A stretch of DNA of 64,000 nt, from NCBI RefSeq assembly GCF_054482525.1, contig NZ_CM137006.1; one strand, given 5' to 3'. Under the pieces are notes generated by a model. It was not told where the DNA came from and made no database searches. It was given only the letters and a program-made list of their open reading frames with translations. A program made the translations under genes and the position numbers. This document shows positions 1 to 58,589 of this stretch, one piece after another. Every line of letters starts with the position of its first letter. Position 1 is the first letter of the stretch.

Positions 1-2179
1 ATGGCCGTTAAAGCCTCCGGGCGTTTTGTCCCTCCGTCAGCATTTGCCGCAGGCACCGGTAAGGCGTTTACCGGTGCTTATGCATGGAACGCGCCACGCG
101 AGGCTGTCGGGCGCGAAAGACCCCTTACACGTGACGAGATGCGTCAGGTGCAAGGTGTTTTATCCACGATTAACCGCCTGCCTTACTTTTTGCGCTCGCT
201 GTTTACGTCACGCTATGACTACATCCGGCGCAATAAAAGCCCGGTGCACGGGTTTTATTTTCTCACATCCACTTTTCAGCGTCGTTTATGGCCGCGCATT
301 GAGCGTGTGAATCAGCGCCATGAAATGAACACCGACGCGTCGTTGCTGTTTCTGGCAGAGCGTGACCATTATGCGCGTCTGCCGGGGATGAATGACAAGG
401 AGCTGAAAAAGTTTGCCGCCCGTATCTCATCGCAGCTTTTCATGATGTATGAGGAACTCTGCGATGCCTGGGTGGATGCGCATGGCGAAAAAGAATCGCT
501 GTTTACGGATGAGGCGCAGGCTCACCTCTATGGTCATGTTGCTGGTGCTGCACGTGCTTTCAATATTTCCCCGCTCTACTGGAAAAAATACCGTAAAGGG
601 CAGATGACCACGAGGCAGGCATATTCTGCCATTGCCCGTCTGTTTAACGATGAGTGGTGGACCCATCAGCTTAAAGGCCAGCGTATGCGCTGGCATGAGG
701 CGTTACTGATTGCTGTCGGGGAGGTCAATAAAGACCGTTCTCCTTATGCTAGTAAACATGCCATTCGTGATGTGCGTGCACGCCGCCAGGCAAATCTGGA
801 ATTTCTTAAATCGTGTGATCTCGAAAACAGGGAAACCGGCGAGCGCATCGACCTTATCAGTAAGGTGATGGGCAGTATTTCTAATCCTGAAATTCGCCGG
901 ATGGAGCTGATGAACACCATTGCCGGTATTGAGCGTTACGCCGCAGCAGAGGGTGATGTGGGGATGTTTATCACGCTGACCGCGCCGTCAAAGTATCACC
1001 CGACACGTCAGGTCAGAAAAGGCGAAAGTAAAACCGTCCAGCTAAATCACGGCTGGAACGATGAGGCATTTAATCCAAAGGATGCGCAGCGTTATCTCTG
1101 CCGTATCTGGAGCCTGATGCGCACGGCATTCAAGGATAATGATTTACAGGTCTACGGTTTGCGTGTCGTCGAGCCACACCACGACGGAACGCCGCACTGG
1201 CATATGATGCTTTTTTGTAATCCGCGCCAGCGTAACCAGATTATCGAAATCATGCGTCGCTATGCGCTCAAAGAGGATGGCGATGAAAGAGGAGCCGCGC
1301 GAAACCGTTTTCAGGCAAAACACCTTAACCGGGGCGGTGCTGCGGGGTATATCGCGAAATACATCTCAAAAAACATCGACGGCTATGCACTGGATGGTCA
1401 GCTCGATAACGATACCGGCAGGCCGCTGAAAGACACTGCTGCGGCTGTTACCGCATGGGCGTCAACGTGGCGCATCCCGCAATTTAAAACGGTTGGTCTG
1501 CCGACAATGGGGGCTTACCGTGAACTACGCAAATTGCCGCGCGGCGTCAGCATTGCTGATGAGTTTGACGAGCGCGTCGAGGCTGCACGCGCCGCCGCAG
1601 ACAGTGGTGATTTTGCGTTGTATATCAGCGCGCAGGGTGGGGCAAATGTCCCGCGCGATTGTCAGACTGTCAGAGTCGCCCGTAGCCCGTCGGATGACGT
1701 TAACGAGTACGAGGAAGAGGTCGAGAGGGTGGTCGGCATTTACGCGCCGCATCTCGGCGCGCGTCATATTCATATCACCAGAACGACGGACTGGCGCATT
1801 GTGCCGAAAGTTCCGGTCGTTGAGCCTTTGACTTTAAAAAGCGGCATCGCCGCGCCTCGGAGTCCTGTCAATAACTGTGGAAAGCTCACCGGTGGTGATA
1901 CTTCGTTACCGGCTCCCACACCTTCTGAGCACGCCGCAGCAGTGCTTAATCTGGTTGATGACGGTGTTATCGAATGGAATGACCCGGAGGTCGTGAGGGC
2001 GCTCAGGGGCGCATTAAAACACGGGCTGAGAACGCCAAATCGTCAGCAAAGAAACAGAAGCCCGTTAAAACCGAATGAAATAGCGCCATCGGCCAGGCTG
2101 ACCCGGTCGGAACGAATGCAAATTACCCGTATCCGCGTTGACCTTGCTCAGAACGGTATCAGGCCGCAGCGATGGGAGC
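1..2179 (+). pseudogene. A: P2-like replication initiation protein gpA (rolling-circle HUH endonuclease), 3' end interrupted by IS3 after codon 726
   Basis: Translation begins MAVKASGRFVPPSAF and contains HUH motif PHWHMMLF and tyrosine motif GYIAKYISK; the provided ORF (1-2217) reads 12 codons into IS3 before stopping. Start at position 1 assumed from recalled P2 gpA N-terminus. Confidence 0.88.
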
Positions 2180-2244
2180 TGATCTTACCCAGCAATAGTG
2201 GACACGCGGCTAAGTGAGTAAACTCTCAGTCAGAGGTGACTCAC

Positions 2245-2544
2245 ATGACAAAAACAGTATCAACCAGTAAAAAACCCCGTAAACAGCATTCGCCTGAATT
2301 TCGCAGTGAAGCCCTGAAGCTTGCTGAACGCATCGGTGTTACTGCCGCAGCCCGTGAACTCAGCCTGTATGAATCACAACTCTACAACTGGCGCAGTAAA
2401 CAGCAAAATCAGCAGACGTCTTCTGAACGTGAACTGGAGATGTCTACCGAGATTGCACGTCTCAAACGCCAGCTGGCAGAACGGGATGAAGAGCTGGCTA
2501 TCCTCCAAAAGGCCGCGACATACTTCGCGAAGCGCCTGAAATGA
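2245..2544 (+). CDS. insE: IS3 transposase OrfA (InsE-like, 99 aa)
   Basis: [31 protein letters not shown]... helix-turn-helix/leucine-zipper OrfA of IS3; the provided ORF starts 3 codons upstream. Confidence 0.92.
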
Positions 2545-3407
2545 AGTATGTCTTTATTGAAAAACATCAGGCTGAGTTCAGCATCAAAGCAATGTGCCGC
2601 GTGCTCCGGGTGGCCCGCAGCGGCTGGTATACGTGGTGTCAGCGGCGGACAAGGATAAGCACGCGTCAGCAGTTCCGCCAACACTGCGACAGCGTTGTCC
2701 TCGCGGCTTTTACCCGGTCAAAACAGCGTTACGGTGCCCCACGCCTGACGGATGAACTGCGTGCTCAGGGTTACCCCTTTAACGTAAAAACCGTGGCGGC
2801 AAGCCTGCGCCGTCAGGGACTGAGGGCAAAGGCCTCCCGGAAGTTCAGCCCGGTCAGCTACCGCGCACACGGCCTGCCTGTGTCAGAAAATCTGTTGGAG
2901 CAGGATTTTTACGCCAGTGGCCCGAACCAGAAGTGGGCAGGAGACATCACGTACTTACGTACAGATGAAGGCTGGCTGTATCTGGCAGTGGTCATTGACC
3001 TGTGGTCACGTGCCGTTATTGGCTGGTCAATGTCGCCACGCATGACGGCGCAACTGGCCTGCGATGCCCTGCAGATGGCGCTGTGGCGGCGTAAGAGGCC
3101 CCGGAACGTTATCGTTCACACGGACCGTGGAGGCCAGTACTGTTCAGCAGATTATCAGGCGCAACTGAAGCGGCATAATCTGCGTGGAAGTATGAGCGCA
3201 AAAGGTTGCTGCTACGATAATGCCTGCGTGGAAAGCTTCTTTCATTCGCTGAAAGTGGAATGTATCCATGGAGAACACTTTATCAGCCGGGAAATAATGC
3301 GGGCAACGGTGTTTAATTATATCGAATGTGATTACAATCGGTGGCGGCGGCACAGTTGGTGTGGCGGCCTCAGTCCGGAACAATTTGAAAACAAGAACCT
3401 CGCTTAG
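2541..3407 (+). CDS. insF: IS3 transposase OrfB (InsF-like, 288 aa, DDE integrase domain)
   Basis: 288-aa ORF overlapping orfA by ATGA; contains HTDRGGQY...[14 protein letters not shown]-type motifs; expected to be expressed as an OrfAB fusion by -1 frameshift. Confidence 0.92.
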
Positions 3408-3440
3408 GCCTGTGTCCATATTACGTGGGTAGGATCAAGC

Positions 3441-3541
3441 TTGAGGTGCTGGCGCGTGGGGCAACGGTAAGCTATTGTGGGGAAAAATTTACGTATCCGG
3501 TCGCTGATGAGGGGGCGGGATTTGTAGTATGTAAATGGTGA
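3441..3541 (+). pseudogene. A: Displaced 3' remnant of gene A (last ~34 codons) downstream of IS3
   Basis: Joining 2179 to 3441 (removing IS3 and one TSD copy) continues the A frame as LEVLARGATVSYCGEKFTYPVADEGAGFVVCKW-stop at 3539-3541, giving ~760 aa, the expected gpA length. Confidence 0.6.
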
Positions 3542-3791
3542 AGGTAAGATGGGTTTTTGTCTGTAACGCATTGTTTTATATGGTTATATTTGATTTTTTG
3601 TAACGTGTGTTCATGTTTTCTTTGCTATGATTCATACTACTGCTATAGATGGCTAAAGATATAGGTTGTTGCTTAAATGTATATAGATAATTAAACGCCT
3701 TAATTTTTGATGAGATGTGTCATAAAGTGGAGTCTGTATGGCATAATTTTATGGGGCATGACATTTATACCATTCTTAAAAAGGAGATTAT

Positions 3792-5459
3792 ATGCTGATA
3801 ACTTTCTCAGGACAAAATTATAAGGCATACGAGAGTTTTAAGTTGTCTTTAAAGCCATTGACAATATTATTAGGGGCAAATAGTTGTGGGAAAAGTGCAT
3901 TAATTAACTCTTTGTTGATGTTTTCTCAGTCTGTTGATTCAATGTCATTGTCTGATTCTGCTTTAAGGTTGAATGGGCCTAAAGTTGGGATGGGAGAAGC
4001 ATTAAATATAATAAAAAATAAAGATGACTCCAAAACACTTAGTTTTAGTTTTGATTTTTCTGATAATACAGTGGTTAAAAATGGCATTGATACACTGAGG
4101 AGAGAAACTTTAGAATCATTTGCTATGATTATGCGATTCACAGTGCAAACGGTGAAAAATAATGACGCTTTGGTTACGAAAGCCAATGATTTAATAAATG
4201 AGGCTTCGAATGCGATCGTTAACTTTGACGAATTTGAGGAAGCTGAGTTAAAGGTTATCGCTGATAAGTTATGTCAATTACTTTTGCTTTTTAGGGAGGC
4301 GGGTGATAATGTCACATTTAGTCGTGCGACCTCAGAAAATTTACGCAAATTTATATATGAATGTCCATTAAAGAGAATAAAGGATTGTCTAACTAAAGTT
4401 ATTTCCATTTCAGGAAATAAATTGTCGGCTTCTAAGATAAGCTATGATTTCAAATATGATAAAAATAAAGGGGTGATAAAAGTTTCGAGGCTTGTTCTTT
4501 TAAATAAGAATGATGAAAAGATAGTTGAGCTATTACCAAAGAAGAATAATGTCGTTGTATTATCAGATGTTATCCCTCAAGAAGTGTTTAGAGGATGTCA
4601 GTCAGATATCTTAGAAATCATCAATCCTTATTCGCTGGGGCTGTTCCCTGTCAATAATGGGCGTGGTTTTTATGTTTTTTTTGGTAACTCTTATAATCCT
4701 GTTGTTAATTTTTTATCACATGTTGTTTCTTTGGGTGTATTAATGCTTTCAAAAATGTTTGATGGTGAAAATGTTAATCACGTCAGCCCATTGAGAGCAT
4801 TTCCTCAGCGATATTATCTATTAGACAAAACAGTCAATCATGCGCAGTTAAATTCTGCCGATGGATCTGAGTTAGCGGAGATCTTGAAGAAAAATACAAA
4901 AATAACAGAAAATATAAATCTTCTTCTGGCTGAATTTAATTTGGCTGTTGATATAGTTAAAGTTAATGACATAATTCATAAAATTGTTATAAACCAAGAT
5001 GCTGTTAATTTAGAGTTGACAGATGTGGGGTTTGGAATATCACAAGTATTGCCTGTCTTGGTTCAAGCTTATTTGTCACCAAAGGGTTCGATTACAATAA
5101 TAGAACAACCAGAAATACATTTGCATCCTAAAATGCAGGCATGGTTAACGGACGCATTAATTAAAATATCTATGCAAGAAAAGAAAGTATTTATTATTGA
5201 AACCCATAGCGATGCTTTAGTTAGACGAATTAGATTAAGAATTGTTGATGAATCGAGTGAACTTACAGAGGATCATGTTGCAATCTACCATCTTGAGCGC
5301 GATGAAGAGGGAACATCAACATTGCTGAATAGGGTGGCTGTAAATTCTGATGGAGATATCACATGGCCAAATGAATTTATGGATGTTGAGATTCAGGATA
5401 CAATTAGAATACAGGAGTTAAAGATACAGAAAATAATGAACTCAAAGGGGGTTCATTGA
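3792..5459 (+). CDS. ABC-type (AAA_15/AAA_21-like) ATPase, 555 aa; first gene of cargo operon in the P2 A-cos accessory slot; candidate defence-system ATPase
   Basis: Walker A GANSCGKS at aa 28-35 (nt 3873-3896); Walker B/D-loop ITIIEQPEIHLHP at aa 434-446 (nt 5091-5129); H-loop IIETHS; ~400-aa insert between Walker A and B; AAGGAG RBS 6 nt upstream; AT-rich codon usage unlike flanking phage genes. Confidence 0.75.
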   Translation: MLITFSGQNYKAYESFKLSLKPLTILLGANSCGKSALINSLLMFSQSVDSMSLSDSALRLNGPKVGMGEALNIIKNKDDSKTLSFSFDFSDNTVVKNGIDTLRRETLESFAMIMRFTVQTVKNNDALVTKANDLINEASNAIVNFDEFEEAELKVIADKLCQLLLLFREAGDNVTFSRATSENLRKFIYECPLKRIKDCLTKVISISGNKLSASKISYDFKYDKNKGVIKVSRLVLLNKNDEKIVELLPKKNNVVVLSDVIPQEVFRGCQSDILEIINPYSLGLFPVNNGRGFYVFFGNSYNPVVNFLSHVVSLGVLMLSKMFDGENVNHVSPLRAFPQRYYLLDKTVNHAQLNSADGSELAEILKKNTKITENINLLLAEFNLAVDIVKVNDIIHKIVINQDAVNLELTDVGFGISQVLPVLVQAYLSPKGSITIIEQPEIHLHPKMQAWLTDALIKISMQEKKVFIIETHSDALVRRIRLRIVDESSELTEDHVAIYHLERDEEGTSTLLNRVAVNSDGDITWPNEFMDVEIQDTIRIQELKIQKIMNSKGVH

Positions 5460-5460
5460 C

Positions 5461-6462
5461 ATGTATTGTGCAGTGTGTTTGTGTCCTGATTTTGTTGCGG
5501 CTAATATTTCTGATATTAATTTATTTAGTGGTTTTTTTATTGGAACCATTGTTAATGGTGAAAATCAGTTGATTTTAGATGCTGATGAAAAAATCCGTTT
5601 GGGCTATTTGAAATCTTGTAAAAATAACAAGGATTCTTTTTATCTGCTTCAGAAATGGGAGGCTGAATTATCTAAAGCTTCTTCAGGTAAAATATTGCTT
5701 GCACCAGTGAGTAATAGTACTGATGATATTAAGGATATAGTTGTTTGTGCAGTTGCTAACGCAGCTACCACCTTTGATAAACATATTGTGGTATTAGACA
5801 ATAATAGTTACTCTGGATATGTTGATGAATTAATTAGGCAAAGAGTTAATTTGTTAAATCTTAATAGTATAAGTTTAATATCAAAGGAGGATAGGGTGCA
5901 GCGTCCTTTGAATTTTATAAAGTTTGATAGCGATTTGTCTTGGGTGCTTCAAAGACTGGGGCGACGCTCTGCTAAAGGATATGGCGAAGATGATTTTAAT
6001 GATTTTATACGAGATATGTTATTAGCTAAAAATTATGAGGTAAAAGATCAAACTCGAGAAGGAGAGTCTCAATCGGGGAAAAAAGCCGGTGAGTTAGATC
6101 TTGTTATTGAAGATAGAGGAGAACTGTTTGCTATAATAGAAGCCTTGATTTTAAACTCTTTAGATCAAGCTAACATATTAAAGCATTATTCAAAGTTAAT
6201 TGATAACTATAATCCTATTCATGTCAAAAGGTTGTTTTTAATTGCTTATTATACAGGTGCAAAATTCGATGCCTGGTGTGAAAGATATATTGAGTATCTA
6301 AAGGGGATTACTTCGGTAGATATTGGTGTGGAATCTCATCAGATAGTTGAGGTTAAAGAAGTGGATACCCCGTACATAGGCTTAAGAAAAATTGAACATC
6401 ATTTTAGATATGCGGGGGAGCACTATTTTTGTATCCATTATGCAGTCAAAATGGCTCGGTGA
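5461..6462 (+). CDS. Hypothetical protein, 333 aa; partner of the ABC ATPase (translationally coupled); candidate effector of unknown fold
   Basis: ATG 1 nt after the ATPase stop (TGA-c-ATG); AT-rich; Cys cluster CAVCLC at N-terminus; acidic stretch GELDLVIEDRGELFAIIEAL; no motif I can assign confidently. Confidence 0.65.
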   Translation: MYCAVCLCPDFVAANISDINLFSGFFIGTIVNGENQLILDADEKIRLGYLKSCKNNKDSFYLLQKWEAELSKASSGKILLAPVSNSTDDIKDIVVCAVANAATTFDKHIVVLDNNSYSGYVDELIRQRVNLLNLNSISLISKEDRVQRPLNFIKFDSDLSWVLQRLGRRSAKGYGEDDFNDFIRDMLLAKNYEVKDQTREGESQSGKKAGELDLVIEDRGELFAIIEALILNSLDQANILKHYSKLIDNYNPIHVKRLFLIAYYTGAKFDAWCERYIEYLKGITSVDIGVESHQIVEVKEVDTPYIGLRKIEHHFRYAGEHYFCIHYAVKMAR

Positions 6463-6473
6463 TGTTTAAGATG

Positions 6474-6499
6474 AATGCACCTATAGGGTGCATCATTTT
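6474..6499 (+). terminator. Putative intrinsic terminator of the cargo operon
   Basis: Short hairpin tgcacc-tata-gggtgca followed by tcatttt immediately after the second cargo gene. Confidence 0.35.
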
Positions 6500-6599
6500 G
6501 CATGTTTAAATATGTTCTCTATGTATGTGCGCTAGGCTTGACTGGCGCGCTTATACTGTGTTTACGCAACTGCATTAAAACTGACCCATGAAGCGGGCG

Positions 6600-6618
6600 G
6601 GCGAGGCGGGGAAAGCAC
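6600..6618. other. cos: P2 cos site (19-nt cohesive-end sequence)
   Basis: GGCGAGGCGGGGAAAGCAC matches the P2 cohesive end as I recall it, located between the accessory slot and the portal gene Q as in P2. Confidence 0.8.
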
Positions 6619-6787
6619 TGCGCGCTGGCGGTGGTGCTGATTTTATTTTTTCAGCGTCTGAGCGCGTCGTGATGGCGTTTGGATTGTTCGCCGGGGCGTT
6701 GGTGTGTATGCGGGCTGTTTTGTGCGGTGGTGAGCGTGTGAGGGCGTGATGACGGGGTGTAAAAAAGCCGCCCGCAGGCGGCGATGT

Positions 6788-7822
6788 TCAGCCGTTGTCA
6801 GTGTCCAGTGAGTAGTTTTTAAAGCGGATGACCTCCTGACCGAGCCAGCCGTTTATCTCGCGGATCCTGTCCTGTAACGGGATAAGCTCATTGCGGACAA
6901 AGACCTTTGCCACTTTCTCAATATCACCCAGCGACCCGACGTTCTCCGGCTTGCCGCCCATCAACTGAAAAGGGATGCGGTGCGCGTCCAGCAGGTCTGC
7001 GGCGCTGGCTTTTTTGATATTAAAAAAATCGTCCTTCGTTGCCACTTCACTGAGCGGGATAATTTTAATACCGTCGGCTTTTCCCTGTGGGGCGTAGAGA
7101 AACAGGTTTTTAAAGTTGTTGCGGCCTTTCGACTTCACCATGTTTTCGCGAAGCATTTCGATATCGTTGCGATCCTGCACGGCATCGGTGACGTACATGA
7201 TGTATCCGGCATGTGCGCCGTTTTCGTAATACTTGCGGCGGAACAGCGTGGCCGACTCATTCAGCCAGGCAGAGTTAAGGGCGCTGAGATATTCCGGCAG
7301 GCCGTACAGCTCCTGATTGATATCCGGCTCCAGCAGGTGAAACACGGAGCCGGGCGCGAAAGGTGTCGGCTCGTTGAAGGATGGCACCCACCAGTAAACA
7401 TCCTCCTCCACGCCACGGCGGGTATATTTTGCCGGTGAGGTTTCCAGTCTGATGACCTTACCGGTAGTGCTGTAGCGCTTTTCCAGAAACGCATTACCGA
7501 ACACCAGAAAATCCAGCACAAAGCGGCTGAAATCCTGCTGGGAAAGCCACGGGTGCGGGATAAACGTTGAGGCCAGAATATTACGTTTGACGTAAATCGG
7601 TGAGCTGTGATGCACGGCAGCACGCAGGCTTTTTGCCAGACCGGTAAAGCTGACCGGTGGCTCATACCATCTGCCGTTACTGATGCACTCGACGTAATCC
7701 AGAATATCACGGCGGTCGAGTACCGGCACCGGCTCACCAAAGGTGAATGCCTCCATTTTCGGGGCGCTGGCAGTCATTGTTTTCACCGCTGGCTGCGGTG
7801 TTTTCCCTTTTTTCTTACTCAT
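6788..7822 (-). CDS. Q: P2-like portal protein gpQ (344 aa)
   Basis: 344-aa ORF MSKKKGKTPQPAVKT..., size and position (leftward, next to cos) match P2 Q. Confidence 0.92.
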   Translation of the reverse strand: MSKKKGKTPQPAVKTMTASAPKMEAFTFGEPVPVLDRRDILDYVECISNGRWYEPPVSFTGLAKSLRAAVHHSSPIYVKRNILASTFIPHPWLSQQDFSRFVLDFLVFGNAFLEKRYSTTGKVIRLETSPAKYTRRGVEEDVYWWVPSFNEPTPFAPGSVFHLLEPDINQELYGLPEYLSALNSAWLNESATLFRRKYYENGAHAGYIMYVTDAVQDRNDIEMLRENMVKSKGRNNFKNLFLYAPQGKADGIKIIPLSEVATKDDFFNIKKASAADLLDAHRIPFQLMGGKPENVGSLGDIEKVAKVFVRNELIPLQDRIREINGWLGQEVIRFKNYSLDTDNG

Positions 7823-9594
7823 CAGTAAAACTCCAGAATGGTGGATGTCAGCGGGGTGCTGATACCGGCGGTGAGTGGCTCATTTAACAGGGCGTGCATG
7901 GTCGCCCAGGCGAGGTCGGCGTGGCTGGCTTCCTCGCTGCGGCTGGCCTCATAGGTGGCGCTGCGTCCGCTGCTGGTCATGGTCTTGCGGATAGCCATAA
8001 ACGAGCTGGTGATGTCGGTGGCGCTGACGTCATATTCCAGACAGCCACGGCGAATAACGTCTTTTGCCTTGAGCACCATTGCGGTTTTCATTTCCGGCGT
8101 GTAGCGGATATCGCGTGCGGCGGGATAGAACGAGCGAACGAGCTGGAACACGCCGACACCGAGGCCGGTGGCATCAATTCCGATGTATTCGACGTTGTAT
8201 TTTTCGGTGAGTTTGCGGATGGATTCAGCCTGGGTGGCAAAGTCCATGCCTTTCCACTGGTGACGCTCAAGTATTCTGAATTTGCCACCGGCCACCACCG
8301 GCGGTGCCAGCACCACGCATCCGGCACTGTCGCCACGGTGTGACGGGTCGTAACCAATCCAGACCGGGCGGGAGCCGAACGGATTCGCGGCAAACGGCGC
8401 ATAGTCTTCCCATTCTTCCAGCGTGTCGACCATGCAGCGTTGCAGCTCCTCGAACGGGAACACCGACGCCTTGTCGTCAACAAATTCACACATGAACAGG
8501 TTTTTAAAATCGTCGGCGCTGTTTTCGCGTTTAAGCTGCTCAATGTCGAACAGCGTGCAGCCACCTTTCAGGGCGTCCTCAATGGTGACAATCTGCCGCC
8601 ACTGACCGTCCGCACAGAGAAGCCCACCGGCAAGAGCGTTATGACTGACGTCGATTTCCACGCGTTCGGCGGCGCTGGCGCGTCCCCGGTTGAACAGTTC
8701 ACCCGACCAGAACGGGTAGGCGTCGTGCGCCAGCGTGGACGGGGTGGAGAAATAGGTCGAGCGCAGGTGACTCTGTGAGGCCATACCTGATGCCACCTTA
8801 CGCAGTACCTGAAAATTCGGTATCCAGAAAATCTCGTCGACGTACAGGTCGCCGTTATGGCTCTGCGCGGTGTTGGAGTTGGTGCCGAGAAAAATCAGTT
8901 TTGCGCCGTTATTGCCCAGGACAATCGGGTCACCGGTCAGGTCAACGTCAACCAGCCGGGCAAAGGCGATGATGTATTCGCGGAACACATACGCCTGCGT
9001 TTTACTGGCCGACAGAAAAATCTGGTTATGACCGGTTTTCAGGGCGCGCAGCAGCGCCTCGCGGGAAAAATAAAACGTCGCGCCAATCTGGCGGGATTTC
9101 AGGATATCGCGGATGCGGTGCTCAAGCCCGGCGCGATACCAGTGCAACTGATATTCGAAAGACTGCTCAAAGAAAATCTGCTCCAGCTTTTCGATAGCCT
9201 CGTCACTGAAAAAATTCTTTTTCGGTTTGCGCCGCCCGCCTTTGTTGCGGTTAGCGATGTTCGGATTAAGGTCTGCCTCGTTGCCGGTCTGGCTGTAGCG
9301 GTTTACCCGTGCCAGTCGTTCAATCTGGCGTCCGAGCAGGTCAATTTCCTTGAAGTCACCGCCGGTTTTCTGCGGTTTGATGATGAGCTGGGTCAGCCGC
9401 GCTTCCAGACTCATTTCGACACGGCTGATGGGGGCAACGCTGTCCCAGCCGTCGCGCTGTTTCCAGCTCTGCACCGTCGGGCGTTTCATCTGCAACATGG
9501 CGGCAATCTGCGGCACGGAAAACCCCTGCCAGTACAGCAGCGCCGCCTGACGACGCGGGTCGTGCAAAAGAGTGGTGTCTGTGGTGATGGTCAT
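7822..9594 (-). CDS. P: P2-like terminase large (ATPase) subunit gpP (590 aa)
   Basis: Start taken at MTITTDTT (ORF track begins 10 codons upstream); 590 aa as P2 gpP; divergent from O. Confidence 0.9.
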   Translation of the reverse strand: MTITTDTTLLHDPRRQAALLYWQGFSVPQIAAMLQMKRPTVQSWKQRDGWDSVAPISRVEMSLEARLTQLIIKPQKTGGDFKEIDLLGRQIERLARVNRYSQTGNEADLNPNIANRNKGGRRKPKKNFFSDEAIEKLEQIFFEQSFEYQLHWYRAGLEHRIRDILKSRQIGATFYFSREALLRALKTGHNQIFLSASKTQAYVFREYIIAFARLVDVDLTGDPIVLGNNGAKLIFLGTNSNTAQSHNGDLYVDEIFWIPNFQVLRKVASGMASQSHLRSTYFSTPSTLAHDAYPFWSGELFNRGRASAAERVEIDVSHNALAGGLLCADGQWRQIVTIEDALKGGCTLFDIEQLKRENSADDFKNLFMCEFVDDKASVFPFEELQRCMVDTLEEWEDYAPFAANPFGSRPVWIGYDPSHRGDSAGCVVLAPPVVAGGKFRILERHQWKGMDFATQAESIRKLTEKYNVEYIGIDATGLGVGVFQLVRSFYPAARDIRYTPEMKTAMVLKAKDVIRRGCLEYDVSATDITSSFMAIRKTMTSSGRSATYEASRSEEASHADLAWATMHALLNEPLTAGISTPLTSTILEFY

Positions 9595-11757: not shown

Positions 11758-12501
11758 ATGACGAGTCCCGCACAGCGCCACATGATGCGGGTCTCGGCAG
11801 CGATGACCGCGCAGCGGGAAGCCGCCCCGCTGCGACATGCAACTGTCTATGAGCAGATGCTGGTTAAGCTCGCCGCAGACCAGCGCACACTGAAAGCGAT
11901 TTATTCAAAAGAGCTGAAGGCCGCGAAAAAACGCGAACTGCTGCCGTTCTGGTTGCCGTGGGTGAACGGCGTGCTGGAGCAGGGCAAAGGTGCACAGGAT
12001 GACATTCTGATGACGGTCATGCTGTGGCGTCTGGATACCGGCGATATTGCCGGTGCGCTGGAGATTGCCCGTTATGCCCTGAAGTACGGTCTGACCATGC
12101 CGGGTAAACACCGCCGTACCCCGCCGTACATGTTCACCGAGGAGGTAGCGCTTGCGGCCATGCGTGCCCACGCTGCCGGTGAGTCTGTGGATACCCGCCT
12201 GCTGACGGAGACCCTTGAACTGACCGCCACGGCTGACATGCCTGATGAAGTGCGCGCAAAGCTGCACAAAATCACCGGTCTGTTTCTGCGTGACGGTGGT
12301 GATGCCGCCGGTGCGCTGGCTCACCTGCAACGTGCGACACAGCTCGACTGTCAGGCAGGTGTCAAAAAAGAGATTGAACGACTGGAGCGGGAGCTGAAAC
12401 CGAAGCCGGAGCCGCAGCCCAAAGCGGCCACCCGCGCCCCGCGTAAGACCCGGAGCGTGACACCGGCAAAACGTGGACGCCCGAAAAAGAAAGCCAGTTA
12501 A
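11758..12501 (+). CDS. M: P2-like terminase small/endonuclease subunit gpM (247 aa)
   Basis: 247-aa ORF following N; basic C-terminus; P2 gene order. Confidence 0.9.
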   Translation: MTSPAQRHMMRVSAAMTAQREAAPLRHATVYEQMLVKLAADQRTLKAIYSKELKAAKKRELLPFWLPWVNGVLEQGKGAQDDILMTVMLWRLDTGDIAGALEIARYALKYGLTMPGKHRRTPPYMFTEEVALAAMRAHAAGESVDTRLLTETLELTATADMPDEVRAKLHKITGLFLRDGGDAAGALAHLQRATQLDCQAGVKKEIERLERELKPKPEPQPKAATRAPRKTRSVTPAKRGRPKKKAS

Positions 12502-18801: not shown

Positions 18802-19405
18802 TTCGCGACTGCTGCCGACCGGCTCATCGCCGCTTGAAGTCGCCGCCGCAAAAGCCTGTGCGGAAATTGAAAAAACGCCGGTCAGTATTCGTGAGCTGTG
18901 GAACCCGGATACCTGTCCGGCAAATCTGCTGCCGTGGCTGGCGTGGTCATTTTCGGTTGACCGCTGGGATGATAAGTGGCCGGAAGCGACAAAACGCGCT
19001 GTTATCCGCGATGCGTATTTCATTCACTGCCATAAGGGCACTATAGGCGCAATCCGGCGTGTGGTGGAGCCGCTCGGCTATCTGATTGAGGTGAGGGAGT
19101 GGTGGCAGCTCAACGAGGAGCCGGGGACGTTCCGCATCGTTGTTGGCGTGCTTGAGCAGGGTATTACCGAGGAAATGTATCAGGAGCTGGAGCGCCTCGT
19201 TGCTGATGCAAAACCGGCAAGCCGCCATCTGACGGGACTGGCTATCAGTTTAAGTACAACCGGCAACATTTTTGCCAGTGCGGGATGCTATCACGGTGAC
19301 GCCCTGACGGTTTATCCCTACACCCCGGAGGCCATTATTGTCGGAGGGGATTATTTCCCGGCCTCGGCCATTCATTTAATTGATAACCTGAGAGTAAACG
19401 CATGA
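18794..19405 (+). CDS. I: P2-like baseplate protein gpI
   Basis: ORF overlapping J end and H start; exact start codon uncertain. Confidence 0.8.
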   Translation: MSDSRLLPTGSSPLEVAAAKACAEIEKTPVSIRELWNPDTCPANLLPWLAWSFSVDRWDDKWPEATKRAVIRDAYFIHCHKGTIGAIRRVVEPLGYLIEVREWWQLNEEPGTFRIVVGVLEQGITEEMYQELERLVADAKPASRHLTGLAISLSTTGNIFASAGCYHGDALTVYPYTPEAIIVGGDYFPASAIHLIDNLRVNA

Positions 19406-20700
19406 CAGTGAAATACTACGCCATTCTGACTAATCAGGGCGCAGCACGGCTGGCTAACGCGACGATGCTCGGCAGTAAGCTGAATCTGACGCAAATGGCC
19501 GTTGGTGATGCGAATGGTGTCTTGCCGACACCAGACCCGGCACAGACAAAACTGATTAATCAGAAACGCATCGCGCCGCTGAATCTTCTGAGTGTTGACC
19601 CGAACAACCAGAGCCAGATTATTGCGGAGCAAATCATCCCTGAGAACGAGGGCGGATTCTGGATCCGTGAGATTGGGCTTTATGATGATGAAGGCGTACT
19701 CATTGCGGTGGCGAACTGCCCGGAAACGTACAAACCGCAGTTACAGGAAGGCAGCGGTCGTACCCAGACTATCCGCATGATTCTGGTTGTCACGAATACC
19801 GAAGCCATCACGCTGAAAATCGACCCGTCGGTGGTACTGGCGACCCGTAAATACGTGGATGATAAAGTCCTGGAATTAAAGCTGTATGTGGATGACCAGA
19901 TGAGAAACCACATTGCCGCACAGGATCCTCATACCCAGTATGCACAGAAACATAATCCGACATTTACCGGAGAACCAAAAGCGCCGACGCCTGCCGCAGG
20001 AAATAACACCACGCGGATTGCGACCACTGCGTTTGTACAGGCCGCTATTACCGCTCTGATTAACGGTGCCCCTGACACGCTGGACACACTGAAAGAAATT
20101 GCCGCAGCTATCAACAATGACCCGAAATTCAGCACCACCATTAACAATGCGCTGTCAGGTAAGCAGCCACTGGATGAGACGCTGACTCATTTGAGTGGAA
20201 AGGATGTTGCCGGTCTTCTCGCATACCTTGGTTTGGGAGAAGGCTCTGCATTGCCGGTTGGTGTGCCTGTTCCGTGGCCTTCAGCCACTCCGCCAACGGG
20301 GTGGCTAAAATGTAACGGAGCAGTATTTTCTTCTGAAAAGTACCCAAATCTGGCAAAGGCTTACCCAACATTAAAATTACCAGATTTACGCGGTGAATTT
20401 ATTCGTGGCTGGGATGATGGGCGCGGGATTGACTCTGGTCGTAACTTATTATCTGCACAGAATGATGCAATTCAGAATATTGTTGGTTCTTTTGGGCGTA
20501 CCCAGCTTTTTAGAGACGTACTTAGTTCAGGGCCATTTAGTCAACATGGGCAAGTATTATCTACAGGTCTAAAGGAAGCCGAAATTATTGAGGGTTATGG
20601 CGCTTATAACTGGACATTCGACGCATCTCGCTCAGTTCGCACAGCATCTGAAACCCGCTCCCGTAACATCGCCTTTAATTATATTGTGAGGGCTGCATGA
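19402..20700 (+). CDS. H: Tail fibre protein gpH (432 aa): P2-like constant N-terminus fused to the currently expressed variable C-terminal cassette
   Basis: N-terminus MTVKYYAILTNQGAARLANA...; C-terminal region (WPSATPPTGWLKCNGAVFSSEKYPNLAKAY...LPDLRGEFIRGW) is tail-collar-like; inversion crossover site lies at codons ~276-280. Confidence 0.88.
   Translation: MTVKYYAILTNQGAARLANATMLGSKLNLTQMAVGDANGVLPTPDPAQTKLINQKRIAPLNLLSVDPNNQSQIIAEQIIPENEGGFWIREIGLYDDEGVLIAVANCPETYKPQLQEGSGRTQTIRMILVVTNTEAITLKIDPSVVLATRKYVDDKVLELKLYVDDQMRNHIAAQDPHTQYAQKHNPTFTGEPKAPTPAAGNNTTRIATTAFVQAAITALINGAPDTLDTLKEIAAAINNDPKFSTTINNALSGKQPLDETLTHLSGKDVAGLLAYLGLGEGSALPVGVPVPWPSATPPTGWLKCNGAVFSSEKYPNLAKAYPTLKLPDLRGEFIRGWDDGRGIDSGRNLLSAQNDAIQNIVGSFGRTQLFRDVLSSGPFSQHGQVLSTGLKEAEIIEGYGAYNWTFDASRSVRTASETRSRNIAFNYIVRAA
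20228..20242. repeat. Left inversion crossover site of tail-fibre segment (inside H)
   Basis: TTGGTTTGGGAGAAG; perfect inverted copy at 22160-22174; weak resemblance to gix/hix half-sites. Confidence 0.6.
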
Positions 20701-21302
20701 TAAGTAAAGCTGTATTAAATAATGAACTCATCGCCACAAAGGCCGGAGACATTACCGTTTATAATTATGATGGTGAAACACGGGAATATATTTCCACATC
20801 AACTGAATATCTTGCTGTGGGTGTCGGTATCCCGGCATGTTCCTGTTTAGATGCTCCTGGCTCATATAAAGCTGGTTATGCAATTTGCCGTTCTGCAGAT
20901 TTTAACTCATGGGAATATGTGCCAGACCATCGCGGTGAAATCGTCTATAGCACCGAAACAGGAGAATCAAAAGAAATCACAGTTCCGGGTGATTACCCTG
21001 AAAATACAACCACTATCGCCCCGTTAACGTCATACGATAAATGGGATGGTGAGAAATGGGTGACCGATACTGAGGCACAGCATAACGCCGCAGTAGACGC
21101 GGCAGAAGTACGGCGCCAGTCACTGATTGATGCTGCTATGGCTTCCATTAGTCTGATTCAGCTGAAATTGCAGGCCGGGCGGAAGCTGACGCAGGCAGAA
21201 ACAACCCGGCTTAACGCTGTGCTGGATTACATTGACGCGGTGACTGCAACAGATACCAGCACCGCGCCGGATGTCATCTGGCCTGAACTACCGGAGGCGT
21301 AG
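20697..21302 (+). CDS. G: Tail fibre assembly chaperone gpG (Tfa), currently expressed orientation
   Basis: 201-aa ORF directly after H; C-terminal ...TATDTSTAPDVIWPELPEA typical of Tfa proteins. Confidence 0.85.
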   Translation: MISKAVLNNELIATKAGDITVYNYDGETREYISTSTEYLAVGVGIPACSCLDAPGSYKAGYAICRSADFNSWEYVPDHRGEIVYSTETGESKEITVPGDYPENTTTIAPLTSYDKWDGEKWVTDTEAQHNAAVDAAEVRRQSLIDAAMASISLIQLKLQAGRKLTQAETTRLNAVLDYIDAVTATDTSTAPDVIWPELPEA

Positions 21303-21717
21303 GCCATTCAATATCTGGAGCACTGGCGGTATCAACCAGTTCCAGTGCGTCCAGATAATCCAGCCATAAATTATATTGTTCCAGCTCGTAACCTTTCAGA
21401 CGACCAATAGCAGCTTTGCCAGGCCACTGATGGGTATTGATGTAGGTATTGACTTCTGAAACCAAAGATATCTTTTTCATTTCAGCCGCCAGCATCTCAT
21501 CCTCTTTTGAAGGCGGCGGGGAATTAATCCATATTGGCCGTCCTGAACTGTCAGCGCCAATTTCTTTCCCTTCTGGATGCAGCCCAAGAAATTGCTCATA
21601 TGTTTCTCTGGTAATTTCAATAACATCATCAGGAAGCGTTCCCGCATCCTCATATTCTGGAAACAATTCTTGCAGATAAAAACTTTTACTTGCGGGTGAA
21701 AAGAATACTGAGTTCAT
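21274..21717 (-). CDS. Alternative tail fibre assembly chaperone (Tfa') for the inverted orientation
   Basis: 147-aa reverse-strand ORF; C-terminus ...DTASAPDIEWPTPPVVQAR parallels gpG; convergent with G and overlapping its 3' end. Confidence 0.75.
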   Translation of the reverse strand: MNSVFFSPASKSFYLQELFPEYEDAGTLPDDVIEITRETYEQFLGLHPEGKEIGADSSGRPIWINSPPPSKEDEMLAAEMKKISLVSEVNTYINTHQWPGKAAIGRLKGYELEQYNLWLDYLDALELVDTASAPDIEWPTPPVVQAR

Positions 21718-21719
21718 TC

Positions 21720-22159
21720 TTACCGTCCAATGATTAACGCTGAGACGCTGGTATCTGAAGGAAAGGCTGCATTCAGTGGTTTGTCGACTTTGAACACAAT
21801 CGTATTATTCCCCCTGACAGCGGCAAAAGAACAAACCGCCGTCGCGTATGAACCTGTAATATTACTGGATACACCACCATAAGCTGTTGTTGATACCAGA
21901 GGGATAACGCCCAGCACCTTATTAGGAAATACAAAGGGCAATGTGGCTGTGGCAATATAAGACTTATTAGAACCTGTAATGGCATAAGCATTATCAGTCA
22001 TTCCATTCATCGCCACTGGACCGCTTATACTTACAGTAACCATCTGAATGATTAGCCCGTCAGGTTGACGAATCACAAAATTTCCATTGCCACCAGTAAC
22101 CGTCCAGAAAGACATATCAGGGATTTGGTTTTCCCCGTTGCCCACATTTCGTTTTGCCG
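21720..22159 (-). CDS. Alternative (currently silent) tail-fibre C-terminal cassette, promoterless, expressed only after inversion
   Basis: Reverse-strand reading frame continuous from the right crossover site; shares the GLGE junction frame with H; no independent start expected. Confidence 0.65.
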
Positions 22160-22174
22160 CTTCTCCCAAACCAA
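22160..22174. repeat. Right inversion crossover site of tail-fibre segment
   Basis: CTTCTCCCAAACCAA, exact reverse complement of 20228-20242. Confidence 0.6.
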
Positions 22175-22241
22175 CGTTTAAGAAAATGCAGAGATTACGG
22201 CTAACTGGCATCATCCCCGGTTTTTATTCAGGGGATCCATC

Positions 22242-22835
22242 ATGCTTATTGGCTATGTCCGCGTGTCAACAAATGACCAGAATACGGAATTGCAGCGTAA
22301 CGCGCTGGAGTGTGCAGGATGTGAGCTTATTTTTGAGGATAAAATCAGCGGCACGAAGTCCGACCGACCGGGACTGAAAAAACTGCTCAGGACATTATCG
22401 GAGGGGGATACACTGGTGGTCTGGAAGCTGGACCGGCTGGGGCGTAGTATGCGGCATCTGGTCATTCTGGTTGAGGAACTGCGCGAACGCGGCGTTAATT
22501 TTCGCAGCCTGACGGATGCTATTGATACCAGCACGCCGATGGGGCGTTTTTTCTTTCATGTGATGGGTGCCCTGGCTGAAATGGAGCGAGAACTCATTGT
22601 CGAGAGGACACGCGCCGGACTGGAAGCGGCCAGAGCCAAAGGTCGTATTGGTGGCAGACGACCGAAACTCACCGCGAGTGAGTGGGAGCAGGCCGGGCGT
22701 TTGCTGGCTGCAGGGGAGTCACGTCAACGCGTGGCACTGATTTTTGATATTGGTCTGTCCACGCTCTATAAAAAATTTCCCTCATCAGCGACAAAGAATA
22801 AATTGTGTCATCCCTTAGCCAACCGGGACAAATAG
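22242..22835 (+). CDS. Serine recombinase, DNA invertase of the Pin/Gin/Hin/Cin family (197 aa)
   Basis: N-terminal catalytic domain MLIGYVRVSTNDQNTELQRNAL (active-site Ser in YVRVST), C-terminal HTH; positioned just outside the right crossover site. Confidence 0.9.
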   Translation: MLIGYVRVSTNDQNTELQRNALECAGCELIFEDKISGTKSDRPGLKKLLRTLSEGDTLVVWKLDRLGRSMRHLVILVEELRERGVNFRSLTDAIDTSTPMGRFFFHVMGALAEMERELIVERTRAGLEAARAKGRIGGRRPKLTASEWEQAGRLLAAGESRQRVALIFDIGLSTLYKKFPSSATKNKLCHPLANRDK

Positions 22836-29278: not shown

Positions 29279-29497
29279 ATGTTTCATTGTCCTTTATGCC
29301 AGCATGCCGCACATGCGCGTACAAGCCGCTATATCACTGACACGACAAAAGAGCGTTATCACCAGTGCCAGAACGTGAATTGCAGCGCCACGTTCATCAC
29401 TTATGAGTCGGTACAGCGATACATCGTGAAGCCGGGAGAAGTCCACGCCGTAAGGCCGCACCCGTTGCCGTCAGGGCAGCAAATTATGTGGATGTAA
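29279..29497 (+). CDS. ogr: Ogr zinc-finger late-gene transcriptional activator (72 aa)
   Basis: MFHCPLCQHAAHARTSRYITDTTKERYHQCQNVNCSATF with Cys4 zinc finger; the provided ORF starts 21 codons upstream. Confidence 0.9.
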   Translation: MFHCPLCQHAAHARTSRYITDTTKERYHQCQNVNCSATFITYESVQRYIVKPGEVHAVRPHPLPSGQQIMWM

Positions 29498-29598: not shown

Positions 29599-29625
29599 AA
29601 AAAATAAGCCCGTGTAAGGGAGATT
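29599..29625. other. attR: P2 att core (prophage right junction, attR) next to yegQ
   Basis: AAAAAATAAGCCCGTGTAAGGGAGATT matches the 27-bp P2 attachment core as I recall it; lies between ogr and the first host gene. Confidence 0.75.
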
Positions 29626-29769
29626 ACACAGGCTAAGGAGGTGGTTCCTGGTACAGCTAGCATTTTATGGGTTATGTTTTTCAGCGAAACGGATGATAAC
29701 CTTAATAAATGCAGCTGTATGTGATCGGTTTCTAAGAATTTTCCATCCGGGAAAAATAATCGAAATTAA

Positions 29770-32513: not shown

Positions 32514-33913
32514 ACTTCTCTCTGTAAATCCCGTTCCAGCGGTAACTCTACTGTAATGCTTACCCCGCCAAAAGGCGAATGGGCAGCAATAATGCGGCCA
32601 TTATGTGCTTCAACAATGTTCAGGCAAATCGCCAGCCCCAGCCCGGAACCGCCGCTGGCGCGGTTCCGGGAACCTTCGGTGCGATAAAAACGTTCAAACA
32701 ATTTTTGTAGCTGATCGTCACTGACGCCCGGCGCGCTGTCAGCAAAGGTCAGGCGCACCGTTTTGTCGTGCTGCTCGGCAGAGATTTTCAGGCTGCCGCC
32801 GCTGTCAGTGTAGCGCAGGCTGTTTTCCAGTAAGTTATTGAATAACTGCATTAAACGGTCGCGATCGCCAAATACAGTAATACTGTCTGGCAGGGAAAAT
32901 TGCAGTTTCAGGCCACGGCTGGCGAATCGTTCGCGAAATGCGCCGCCCGCCACTTCCAGCAGTGGGATCAAATCTACCGGTGCTTTTTGATAGGCGAGAG
33001 CGCCTTCATCAGACATCGACAACTGATGCAGATCGTCAACCAGTTTGGTCAGTGTACCGACCTCCGCCTGTAAAGACGCCACCGTCTCCGGCGTGAATTT
33101 ACGCACGCCATCCTGAATGGCTTCCAGTTCACCGCGCAGCACCGCTAATGGCGTACGCAGTTCGTGAGAAATATCGGCCATAAAATCGCGGCGCATTTGC
33201 TGGTTTTTCTCCAGCGTGCTGGCGAGCTGGTTGAAGTCTTGCGCCAGTTTGCCCAGTTCATCTTCACTGGTGGGCGTCACGCGGGTAGTGAAATCGCCCG
33301 CCGCCAGTTTGTGCGTGCCGTCCACCAGCCGTTTTACCGGTGCCAGCAAACCACGCGCCAGCAGAAAGGTAGCGAGTGCCGCGAGTAACGTTGCCAGAGC
33401 GACAATCAGCCAGCTGGTTTGCCGCTGTTGTTTATCGAAATTGATATCAGTATTGCGGGTCAGTCGCTCAACAGGGGAGGCAATCACCGCACCCACTTCC
33501 GCACCGTTGACCAGAATGGGTCGCCGTGTACCGTCAGGTGGAATCGGCGCTCGCGGACCAACCAGCACTTTGTTGTTTTGATCAACCACCCAGAACTGGG
33601 TACGCCAGCCGTGCGGTGGCATACCCGGGCCGGGTTTATCTTCCGAATTATCGTGTTCAAATGAACGCAGGATCTGAAAGACAAAGCGATCATTGTTGCG
33701 CAGGAAGCGCCAGTTACCATGCTGCGCATACTGCTCGCCAAGCGCATCACTTAACAGTTGTAATCGCTGTTCATTACCATGCTTGATGTAATCAATAAAG
33801 CCACGCTCAAAACTGATACGCACCGCCCAGTGCATACTGATCAGCAAGACAATGCAGGTGGCGAAAATCGCCAGAAACAGTTTGCCGGTAATACCGGGTC
33901 GCCAGAACTTCAT
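32510..33913 (-). CDS. baeS: Sensor histidine kinase BaeS (467 aa)
   Basis: TM sensor, HAMP, His kinase (HELRTPL) and ATPase domains; overlaps baeR start. Confidence 0.96.
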
Positions 33914-42999: not shown

Positions 43000-43150
43000 C
43001 TGAAACGGGAAAGCCCCTCCCGAGGAAGGGGCCATAAATAAGGAAAGGGTCATGATGAAGCTACTCATCATCGTGGTGCTCTTAGTCATTAGCTACCCAG
43101 CATACTAAGACTACCAGGGCGGGGGAAACCCCGCTCTACCCTCACTCCTG
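43000..43150 (-). ncRNA. sibB: SibB antisense sRNA (type I antitoxin), approximate boundaries
   Basis: By established ibs/sib organisation the antisense RNA fully overlaps ibs; reverse-strand hairpin plus U-rich tract near 43009-43031 is consistent with its terminator. Confidence 0.5.
43052..43108 (+). CDS. ibsB: Type I toxin IbsB (18-aa hydrophobic peptide)
   Basis: ATGATGAAG... encodes MMKLLIIVVLLVISYPAY; preceded by AAGGAGG-containing leader. Confidence 0.85.
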   Translation: MMKLLIIVVLLVISYPAY

Positions 43151-43329
43151 AAAGTATGCCTTCACGATAAGATTGTCAATCTGCAGGCTTTGCAGTCTGC
43201 GATCCTGCCAGCAAATATTCTTTGCGAGACGTTACGCAATAATCACACTGGAAACTATTTTATCCGCAAGTCAGCGATAGACTGCATACAGGGCGAAAGG
43301 AGGTAAGCCGACGATTTCAGCGGGACGCT

Positions 43330-43480
43330 GAAACGGGAAACCCTCTCCCGGAGAAGAGGGCTTTTAATAAGGAAAGGGTTATGATGAAGCACGTCATCAT
43401 ACTGGTGATACTCTTAGTGATTAGCTTCCAGGCTTACTAAGAACACCAGGGGGAGGGGGAAACCTCTCCCTAACCCTCAC
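43330..43480 (-). ncRNA. sibA: SibA antisense sRNA (type I antitoxin), approximate boundaries
   Basis: Antisense to ibsA by analogy; hairpin at ~43338-43360. Confidence 0.5.
43381..43440 (+). CDS. ibsA: Type I toxin IbsA (19-aa hydrophobic peptide)
   Basis: Encodes MMKHVIILVILLVISFQAY. Confidence 0.85.
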   Translation: MMKHVIILVILLVISFQAY

Positions 43481-43660
43481 TCCTGAAATTATGTCACTCC
43501 GCCCTTAGTGTCAATCGACGGCTCTCCGTTCTTGCGAGGCGAATAGCAAAATTTTCTGCGCCGCCGGGCCTAATTCTGAAAGTTTCTTCGTTTGCTCTTA
43601 TTTCATTGTTGCAGTCGGTATGATACCGGACCTCGATAATTCTCTAAGAAAGGATTTCTT

Positions 43661-58284: not shown

Positions 58285-58577
58285 TGTGGAGACACTATAT
58301 TAAATATTGTCAACCTAAAGAAACTCCTAAAAACCATATTGAATGACACTTAATATAATTCTTAAAAATAGCCAATTGCCGAATTGTTACCTTGCCTGCT
58401 ATTCCGTTAGCTGTAACACTTCCTCCTGCATTATTGGAGAGCCAATATTCAATTACCATAATGTCACCTTATATTCGGAAGTTAATTTCCGCAATAACCC
58501 TTTCTCATCAACGACTGTATGTTGAGAGGGTTTTAAAAATTAAGCTAAATCAGTGTATTGGTAGCTAAAAAGCCAGG

Positions 58578-58589
58578 GGCGGTAGCGTG
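58578..58589 (+). promoter_or_regulatory. ops: ops element (GGCGGTAGCGTG) within JUMPstart in the wza 5' leader; RfaH recruitment site
   Basis: Exact match to ops consensus GGCGGTAGnnTG ~180 bp upstream of wza, same strand. Confidence 0.8.

Follow-up and report, generated by a model that had tools for sequence, protein, structure and literature searches.

The window considered here (the whole stretch of DNA that was analysed, 64,000 nucleotides) begins at base 1 with replication gene A of a P2-like prophage. When every P2 protein was compared to the window by tblastn, the genes past cos were found in the order Q, P, O, N, M, L, X, Y, K, lysA/B, R, S, followed by V, W, J, I, FI, FII, E, T, U, D and ogr (29279-29494). 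Most of the late genes are 97-100% identical to those of P2 at the amino acid level, and they are collinear with P2 from cos. About 29.5 kb of the prophage lies in the window, from the start of A to ogr and attR, with the part from int to A outside it. In the nearest complete genome, that of E. coli ARS-C301, this prophage is flanked by yegR and the yegQ side, and upstream of A it has int, C, cox and B. Judged by its genes, the window holds the right-hand four-fifths of a P2-like prophage with cos in its interior, which is where an integrated P2 should have it. If the int-to-A part resembles that of ARS-C301 (about 3.6 kb), the distance from cos to cos would be about 33 kb, IS3 included; the P2 capsid holds about 33.6 kb. 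The features that matter to the argument are these:

2180-3437, plus strand: IS3, 1258 bp, complete, in the 3' end of replication gene A (99.3-99.8% identity)
3792-5459, plus strand: cargo ATPase, AAA_15/AAA_21 ABC-type (Pfam and PADLOC hits)
5461-6462, plus strand: cargo partner of 333 amino acids (no family hit)
6475-6504, plus strand: upstream TGCAT-box block, ATGCA-N-GGTGCAT-N4-TTGCATG (conserved boxes, terminator-like hit, inverted repeat)
6543-6550 (about), plus strand: weakly conserved GGCGCG block, right of the boxes and left of the core (partly conserved in both sets of loci defined below)
6567-6625, plus strand: conserved cos core, about 59 bp (conserved in P2-like and P4-like loci)
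6600-6618, plus strand: cosN-like segment, 19-nt cohesive end (equal to cosL/cosR of NC_001895)
6767-6782, minus strand: tQ, intrinsic terminator of the P-Q operon (terminator scan; aligns with P2 tQ, 160-181)
6788-7822, minus strand: portal gene Q (99.1% amino acid identity to P2 gpQ, 343/344 residues)
7822-9594, minus strand: large terminase gene P (99.7% to P2 gpP, 590/590 amino acids)
11758-12501, plus strand: small terminase gene M (99.6% to P2 gpM, 247/247 amino acids)

The cognate terminase subunits, gpP and gpM, are thus full length and encoded on the same element as cos. Since the genes for head, tail, lysis and packaging are all present, the element is, by its coding content, a helper-type phage and not a satellite. 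An earlier reading of this DNA, made from the sequence only, had suggested inducing the phage with a helper, which reverses the roles: portal, terminase, capsid and tail are all encoded by the element itself. The epsilon protein of P4 is able to derepress a P2 prophage (PMC9942202).

The 19-mer GGCGAGGCGGGGAAAGCAC occupies positions 6600-6618 on the plus strand. In the record of phage P2 (NC_001895) the same sequence makes up bases 1-19, annotated "cosL; left cohesive end", and bases 33575-33593, annotated "cosR; right cohesive end". The identity is 19/19 to both ends of NC_001895 and to P4, and PMC3931495, citing Padmanabhan, Wu and Calendar (1974), gives GGCGAGGCGGGGAAAGCAC for P2-related phages as their 19-nt 5'-extruding end. 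The sequence-only reading had called this site the P2 cos and proposed that it be compared with the documented P2 cohesive end. The comparison gave no mismatch, and the identification is therefore correct. Three phage records, fiAA91-ss, vB_YpM_476A and MET_P1_103_31, start or end exactly at the base equivalent to 6600, and that of fiAA91-ss bears a cosL annotation there. The exact 19-mer is found in at least 120 IMG/VR contigs, and 2154 of 5426 complete E. coli genomes (about 40%) match window positions 6480-6700.

It had also been claimed that the sequence is present once, and indeed GGCGAGGCGGGGAAAGCAC is the sole match in the window on either strand, even with up to 3 mismatches tolerated. 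The GC content is 31-36% through the cargo (3601-6300), 41% in 6301-6600 and 58% in 6601-6900. The step from 41% to 58% puts the 19-mer where the GC-rich DNA of the backbone begins. To its left are the two cargo genes (3792-6462, plus strand) and a hairpin with a run of T's (6475-6493), and to its right are tQ and portal gene Q (6788-7822, minus strand). This placement between cargo and Q, noted from the start, is that of P2, where the slot is held by old and tin. From 6566 to Q, the window and the circularised P2 junction can be aligned base by base, tQ included. Two-fold symmetry about the 19-mer is incomplete, with pairing at 12 of 34 mirrored positions; the pairs cluster where the sequence flanks the nicks.

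Could so GC-rich a 19-mer have arisen by chance? The idea can be dismissed, for dinucleotide-preserving shuffles lead one to expect 0.02 matches to GGCGAGGCGGGGAAAGCAC at 3 or fewer mismatches, and the surrounding 300 bp align as homologous to the P2 cos junction. The opposite concern, that the site is the cos of a P4-like satellite rather than of a P2-like phage, draws on the identical 19-mer and core in P4. The context of genes rules it out, leaving it a vanishingly small probability: gpA lies to the left and gpQ and gpP to the right, the 169 bp from the 19-mer to the stop codon of Q align with P2 and not P4, and none of the genes psu, sid and delta is adjacent. The 19-mer is, on sequence grounds, the canonical P2 cos in the customary place of a P2-like phage, and as such is already known. 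The layout of gpA, variable cargo, cos and gpQ has likewise been published as a P2 defence hotspot (Rousset 2022, PMC9122126).

In order to define the site beyond the 19-mer, the window was aligned to the circularised ends of P2, P4 and 186 and several prophage-derived records, and also to 109 distinct IMG/VR cos regions (among the matches listed). The loci, including the window and the P2 and P4 references, were divided by their neighbouring genes into a P2-like set of 93 (Q present) and a P4-like set of 15 (psu present). The core, 6567-6625, consists of 33 bp to the left of the nick (GCAACTGCATTAAAAC..CCC..AAGCGGGCG), the 19-mer, and TGCGCGC to the right. It is conserved at 75-90% or better in the 93 P2-like and 15 P4-like loci (among the matches listed), and its identity is 53/59 to each of P2, P4 and 186. 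The shortest matches in the search of E. coli genomes have nearly the same limits (query 87-146, or window 6566-6625). The only homology between P2 and P4 is cos (Rousset et al., PMC9122126), and a cos of about 55 bp is the figure given for their common stretch in PMC9594776 and PMC3931495. To judge from the alignments, the core is the counterpart of that reported 55-bp cos.

Farther to the left, GTGCAT (6488-6493) and TTGCATG (6498-6504) are conserved across P2-like and P4-like loci with unrelated flanks, and there is a further ATGCA box at 6475-6479. Between these boxes and the core, P2 itself diverges in the GGCGCG block (6543-6550), where the window is closer to the family consensus. To the right of 6625, nothing is common to the P2-like and P4-like sets (108 loci, among the matches listed). 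Conserved positions extend about 113-125 bp toward the cargo and 7 bp toward Q, which makes the site strongly asymmetric. The 19-mer is therefore not the whole of the site; the core and the boxes on the cargo side are conserved as well. Because the boxes are kept in satellites packaged by the same enzyme, I infer that those at 6475-6504 are a putative accessory element of terminase recognition, contacted by the small terminase. Cosmids with a cos derived from P4 are described, in PMC9594776, as giving a transduction efficiency of 0.035 with longer flanks, compared with 1.7e-5 for the least efficient; the authors there later describe the packaging signal of the least efficient cosmid as shorter. 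The difference in efficiency fits a contribution by the flanks.

The extent of the conserved sequence bears on where the accessory slot ends. The second cargo gene stops at 6462, and the first of the conserved boxes begins at 6475-6488. A hairpin, ATGCACC-TATAG-GGTGCAT, follows at 6475-6493, then CATTTTGCAT, and it is both a terminator-like hit and an inverted repeat. It is made of the first two conserved TGCAT boxes, GGTGCAT among them. In a P2-like prophage of Serratia marcescens, a homologous pair of cargo genes is inverted and transcribed away from cos, and a closely similar GTGCAT/TTGCAT array nonetheless stands at about the same distance from cos. That the array is kept beside cargo of the opposite orientation indicates that the boxes are part of the phage backbone rather than of the cargo. 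Since the sequence common to P2-like and P4-like loci runs from about 6475 or 6488 to 6625, the right edge of the slot falls at about 6475-6487 rather than at 6600, about 115-125 bp to the left of the nick and overlapping the hairpin. The left edge follows the remnant of A, where alignment to P2 A reaches 3538.

The 19-mer had been said to fix the boundary of the slot. It marks the nicking segment only, and the shared sequence extends left of it to about 6475 or 6488. The claim of a cargo terminator fares better in part: a terminator-like hairpin with a run of T's is present, but it is built from conserved boxes of the backbone. It looks as though the upstream boxes double as an apparent terminator of the cargo transcribed rightward. 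The cos and its upstream boxes thus mark the right edge of a hotspot of defence genes and are useful for delimiting the cargo cassette; cos also fixes the ends of the mature genome of the prophage, a matter of small importance beyond annotation. One observation on the overhang may be added here: Serratia marcescens AP028490 (L138, 2880-3340) has a variant overhang, GGCGTGGCGGGGATAGCAT, with a closely similar core and GTGCAT/TTGCAT layout, so that the architecture is conserved despite drift of the overhang.

How does the site compare with known cos systems? The cos of P2 (NC_001895) has the same overhang and core, the same arrangement of tQ, Q and P to the right, and a variable slot on the gpA side to the left. 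It differs by six base substitutions within the 33 bp that precede the nick on the left and by the cargo of the slot, which is orf91-tin-old in P2 and an ATPase with a nuclease-like partner in the window. The cos of P4 (ends of NC_001609) shares the 19-mer exactly, 53 of the 59 positions of the core, and the TGCAT boxes about 100-115 bp left of the nick. It differs in having no similarity to the right of +26, and its variable hotspot is to the right of cos, with psu to the left. The cos of 186 (NC_001317) has the same architecture and boxes as the window but an overhang, GGCGTGGCGGGGAAAGCAT, with two substitutions (17/19).

The more distant comparison is with lambda, whose terminase makes staggered nicks that leave 5' cohesive ends and whose recognition sequences flank the nicks asymmetrically. 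The cos of lambda (cosQ-cosN-cosB) is alike in just these respects, the 5' cohesive ends from staggered nicks and the asymmetric accessory sequences. The lambda overhang, however, is 12 nt and unrelated in sequence, as against 19 nt in the window, and the 12-nt cosN, GGGCGGCGACCT, is absent from both strands of the window. The accessory site of lambda lies on the side of the terminase genes, whereas the conserved accessory blocks of the window lie on the opposite side. The missing 12-mer and the position of those blocks away from the terminase genes exclude a cos of the lambda type.

The site is therefore best read as the cos of a P2-like (Peduovirus) prophage, located beside cyaR/yegQ in an E. 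coli-type chromosome, that would be cut by terminase as in P2; I put the probability of this at about 0.94. The direct basis for it is sequence identity, position, the pattern of conservation, and the intact genes for terminase and portal. In its favor are also the late region collinear with P2 from cos through ogr and the pattern of conserved blocks across 108 loci (among the matches listed). Against it may be counted the divergence of P2 in the block at 6543-6550 and the splitting of gene A by IS3, owing to which the packaging stage is perhaps never reached. The chemistry of cleavage and the roles of gpM, gpP and the upstream boxes are what P2 biology would lead one to expect.

During the lytic cycle, the excised and replicated circle would be recognised by terminase, composed of gpM (small subunit) and gpP (large subunit). 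The P2 enzyme acts on monomeric circles, not concatemers. Recognition probably requires more than the 19-mer and likely draws on the roughly 59-bp core (6567-6625), perhaps together with the TGCAT boxes (6475-6504). Two nicks 19 bp apart would then be made, on the top strand 5' of G6600 and on the bottom strand after 6618, a geometry taken from the annotation of the 186 record. The result would be a linear genome with complementary 19-nt 5'-protruding ends able to re-anneal after injection, its left end running from 6600 on the Q side and its right end reaching to 6618 on the cargo side.

Whether the prophage can make use of its cos depends on gene A, a gene marked in the P2 annotation as essential (for replication). 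IS3 lies within A and is not cargo of the slot. It contains orfA (2236-2544) and orfB (2541-3407), with rve and HTH_Tnp_1 domains, and it separates A into segments at 1-2179 and 3438-3541, the breakpoints having been set relative to ARS-C301. Residues 1-727 of P2 A correspond to window positions 1-2181 and residues 724-760 to 3431-3538. The reading frame of A is interrupted after about codon 727 of 761 and ends at 2217 after 12 codons derived from IS3. The near-identical prophage of ARS-C301 lacks IS3, but its A is frameshifted, and the combination of IS3 with this cargo occurs in no complete E. coli genome of the collection searched.

It follows that cos may be of no use to the prophage that carries it. 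The site might be intact in sequence yet stranded in a prophage that is replication-defective from the loss of the last 34 or so codons of A, while a P4-like satellite could still draw late proteins from that prophage. I offer this only tentatively and think it possible rather than probable. The position of IS3 and the early end of the frame speak for it, as does the damage to A in the closest relative, but the site of the origin nick (P2 29892, about 1859 in the window) is intact, as are 727 of 761 codons of A, and the late genes and cos are all undamaged. The C-terminal tail is moreover the least conserved part of A (68% identity vs 98%) and maybe dispensable, so loss of A function is possible but not certain.

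The direction in which the genome enters the capsid is a separate matter. On the P2 map, the cargo would come to lie at the right end of the mature genome after cutting, and the sequence-only reading had it that the cargo is the last DNA packaged. In lambda, the end bearing the site that binds terminase (cosB) is packaged first. If the same held here, terminase would anchor the cargo side, the cargo would enter first, and the Q end would be last in and first out. This reversed polarity accords with the location of all the conserved cos sequence of P2-like and P4-like loci, save 7 bp, to the left of the nick, and with the analogy to lambda. It is an argument from analogy only, however, and P2 packages monomeric circles. 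Furthermore, Chattoraj and Inman reportedly found in 1974 that the right end of P2 is at the tail, a result that would agree with cargo-last. I judge the reversed order to be a little short of an even bet, and the choice between cargo-first and cargo-last to be close to even odds. The search covered a collection of papers citing Chattoraj and Inman (1974) or Ziermann and Calendar (1990) and met with no statement as to which P2 end enters first.

A further suggestion, which I consider unlikely, is that in P2 the terminase stays on the cargo side after the cut and handles the cargo end, and that the gene-exchange hotspots of both P2 and P4 abut cos for that reason. If a terminase-bound cargo end were true, the packaging polarity of P2 would be opposite to the rule of gene order in lambda. 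In P4, the cargo starts directly on the other side of the nick.

In the cargo itself (3792-6462), the best PADLOC hits of the ATPase are to NsnB, HEC-03B and PDC-M55A, and the AriA and GajA models also hit. Its partner (5461-6462) matches nothing in Pfam, NCBIfam, PHROGs or PADLOC; it belongs to a small family of proteins of about 333 amino acids in Enterobacterales and Pseudomonas, and it is beside the same kind of ATPase in the three other contexts examined (ARS-C301, Serratia marcescens and Pseudomonas veronii). As modelled by AlphaFold (pLDDT 86.7), the partner resembles a PIN-like domain with a restriction-endonuclease-like domain after it. The pair looks like a candidate ATPase-nuclease anti-phage system. 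The P2 anti-phage hotspot between gpA and gpQ likewise has variable, AT-rich cargo adjoining cos (PMC9122126), and the architecture "AAA_15/AAA_21 + hypothetical" is found in the hotspot tables (the P2 or the P4 file) of the supplement to Rousset 2022 (PMC9122126). The match of the window's cargo to those tables is one of architecture class and not of a specific entry.

An open reading frame of 53 codons (6588-6749) spans the nick and is entered as a "hypothetical protein" in phage records KC618326 and ON470606. It was rejected as a gene: an ATG start is present in only 47 of 110 relatives, the length of the frame is variable, there are single-base indels with respect to P2, and no family hit is significant. 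It is most likely an artefact of annotation.

A scan against Rfam gave no hit in cos or its vicinity. It did find the CyaR sRNA at 29602-29687 (minus strand), about 100 bp past ogr on the attR side and outside the prophage, and, also outside, two Sib antitoxin RNAs (43037-43514, minus strand) and a JUMPstart element (58551-58589, plus strand). Within the prophage, the tail-fibre region (19402-22835) is unlike that of P2: H is similar in its N-terminal part only (42% identity), and P2 G and fun(Z) are missing. A serine recombinase/invertase (22242-22835) adjoins small, oppositely oriented open reading frames (21274-22214), an arrangement suggestive of an invertible tail-fibre (host-range) switch where P2 has its Z/fun slot.
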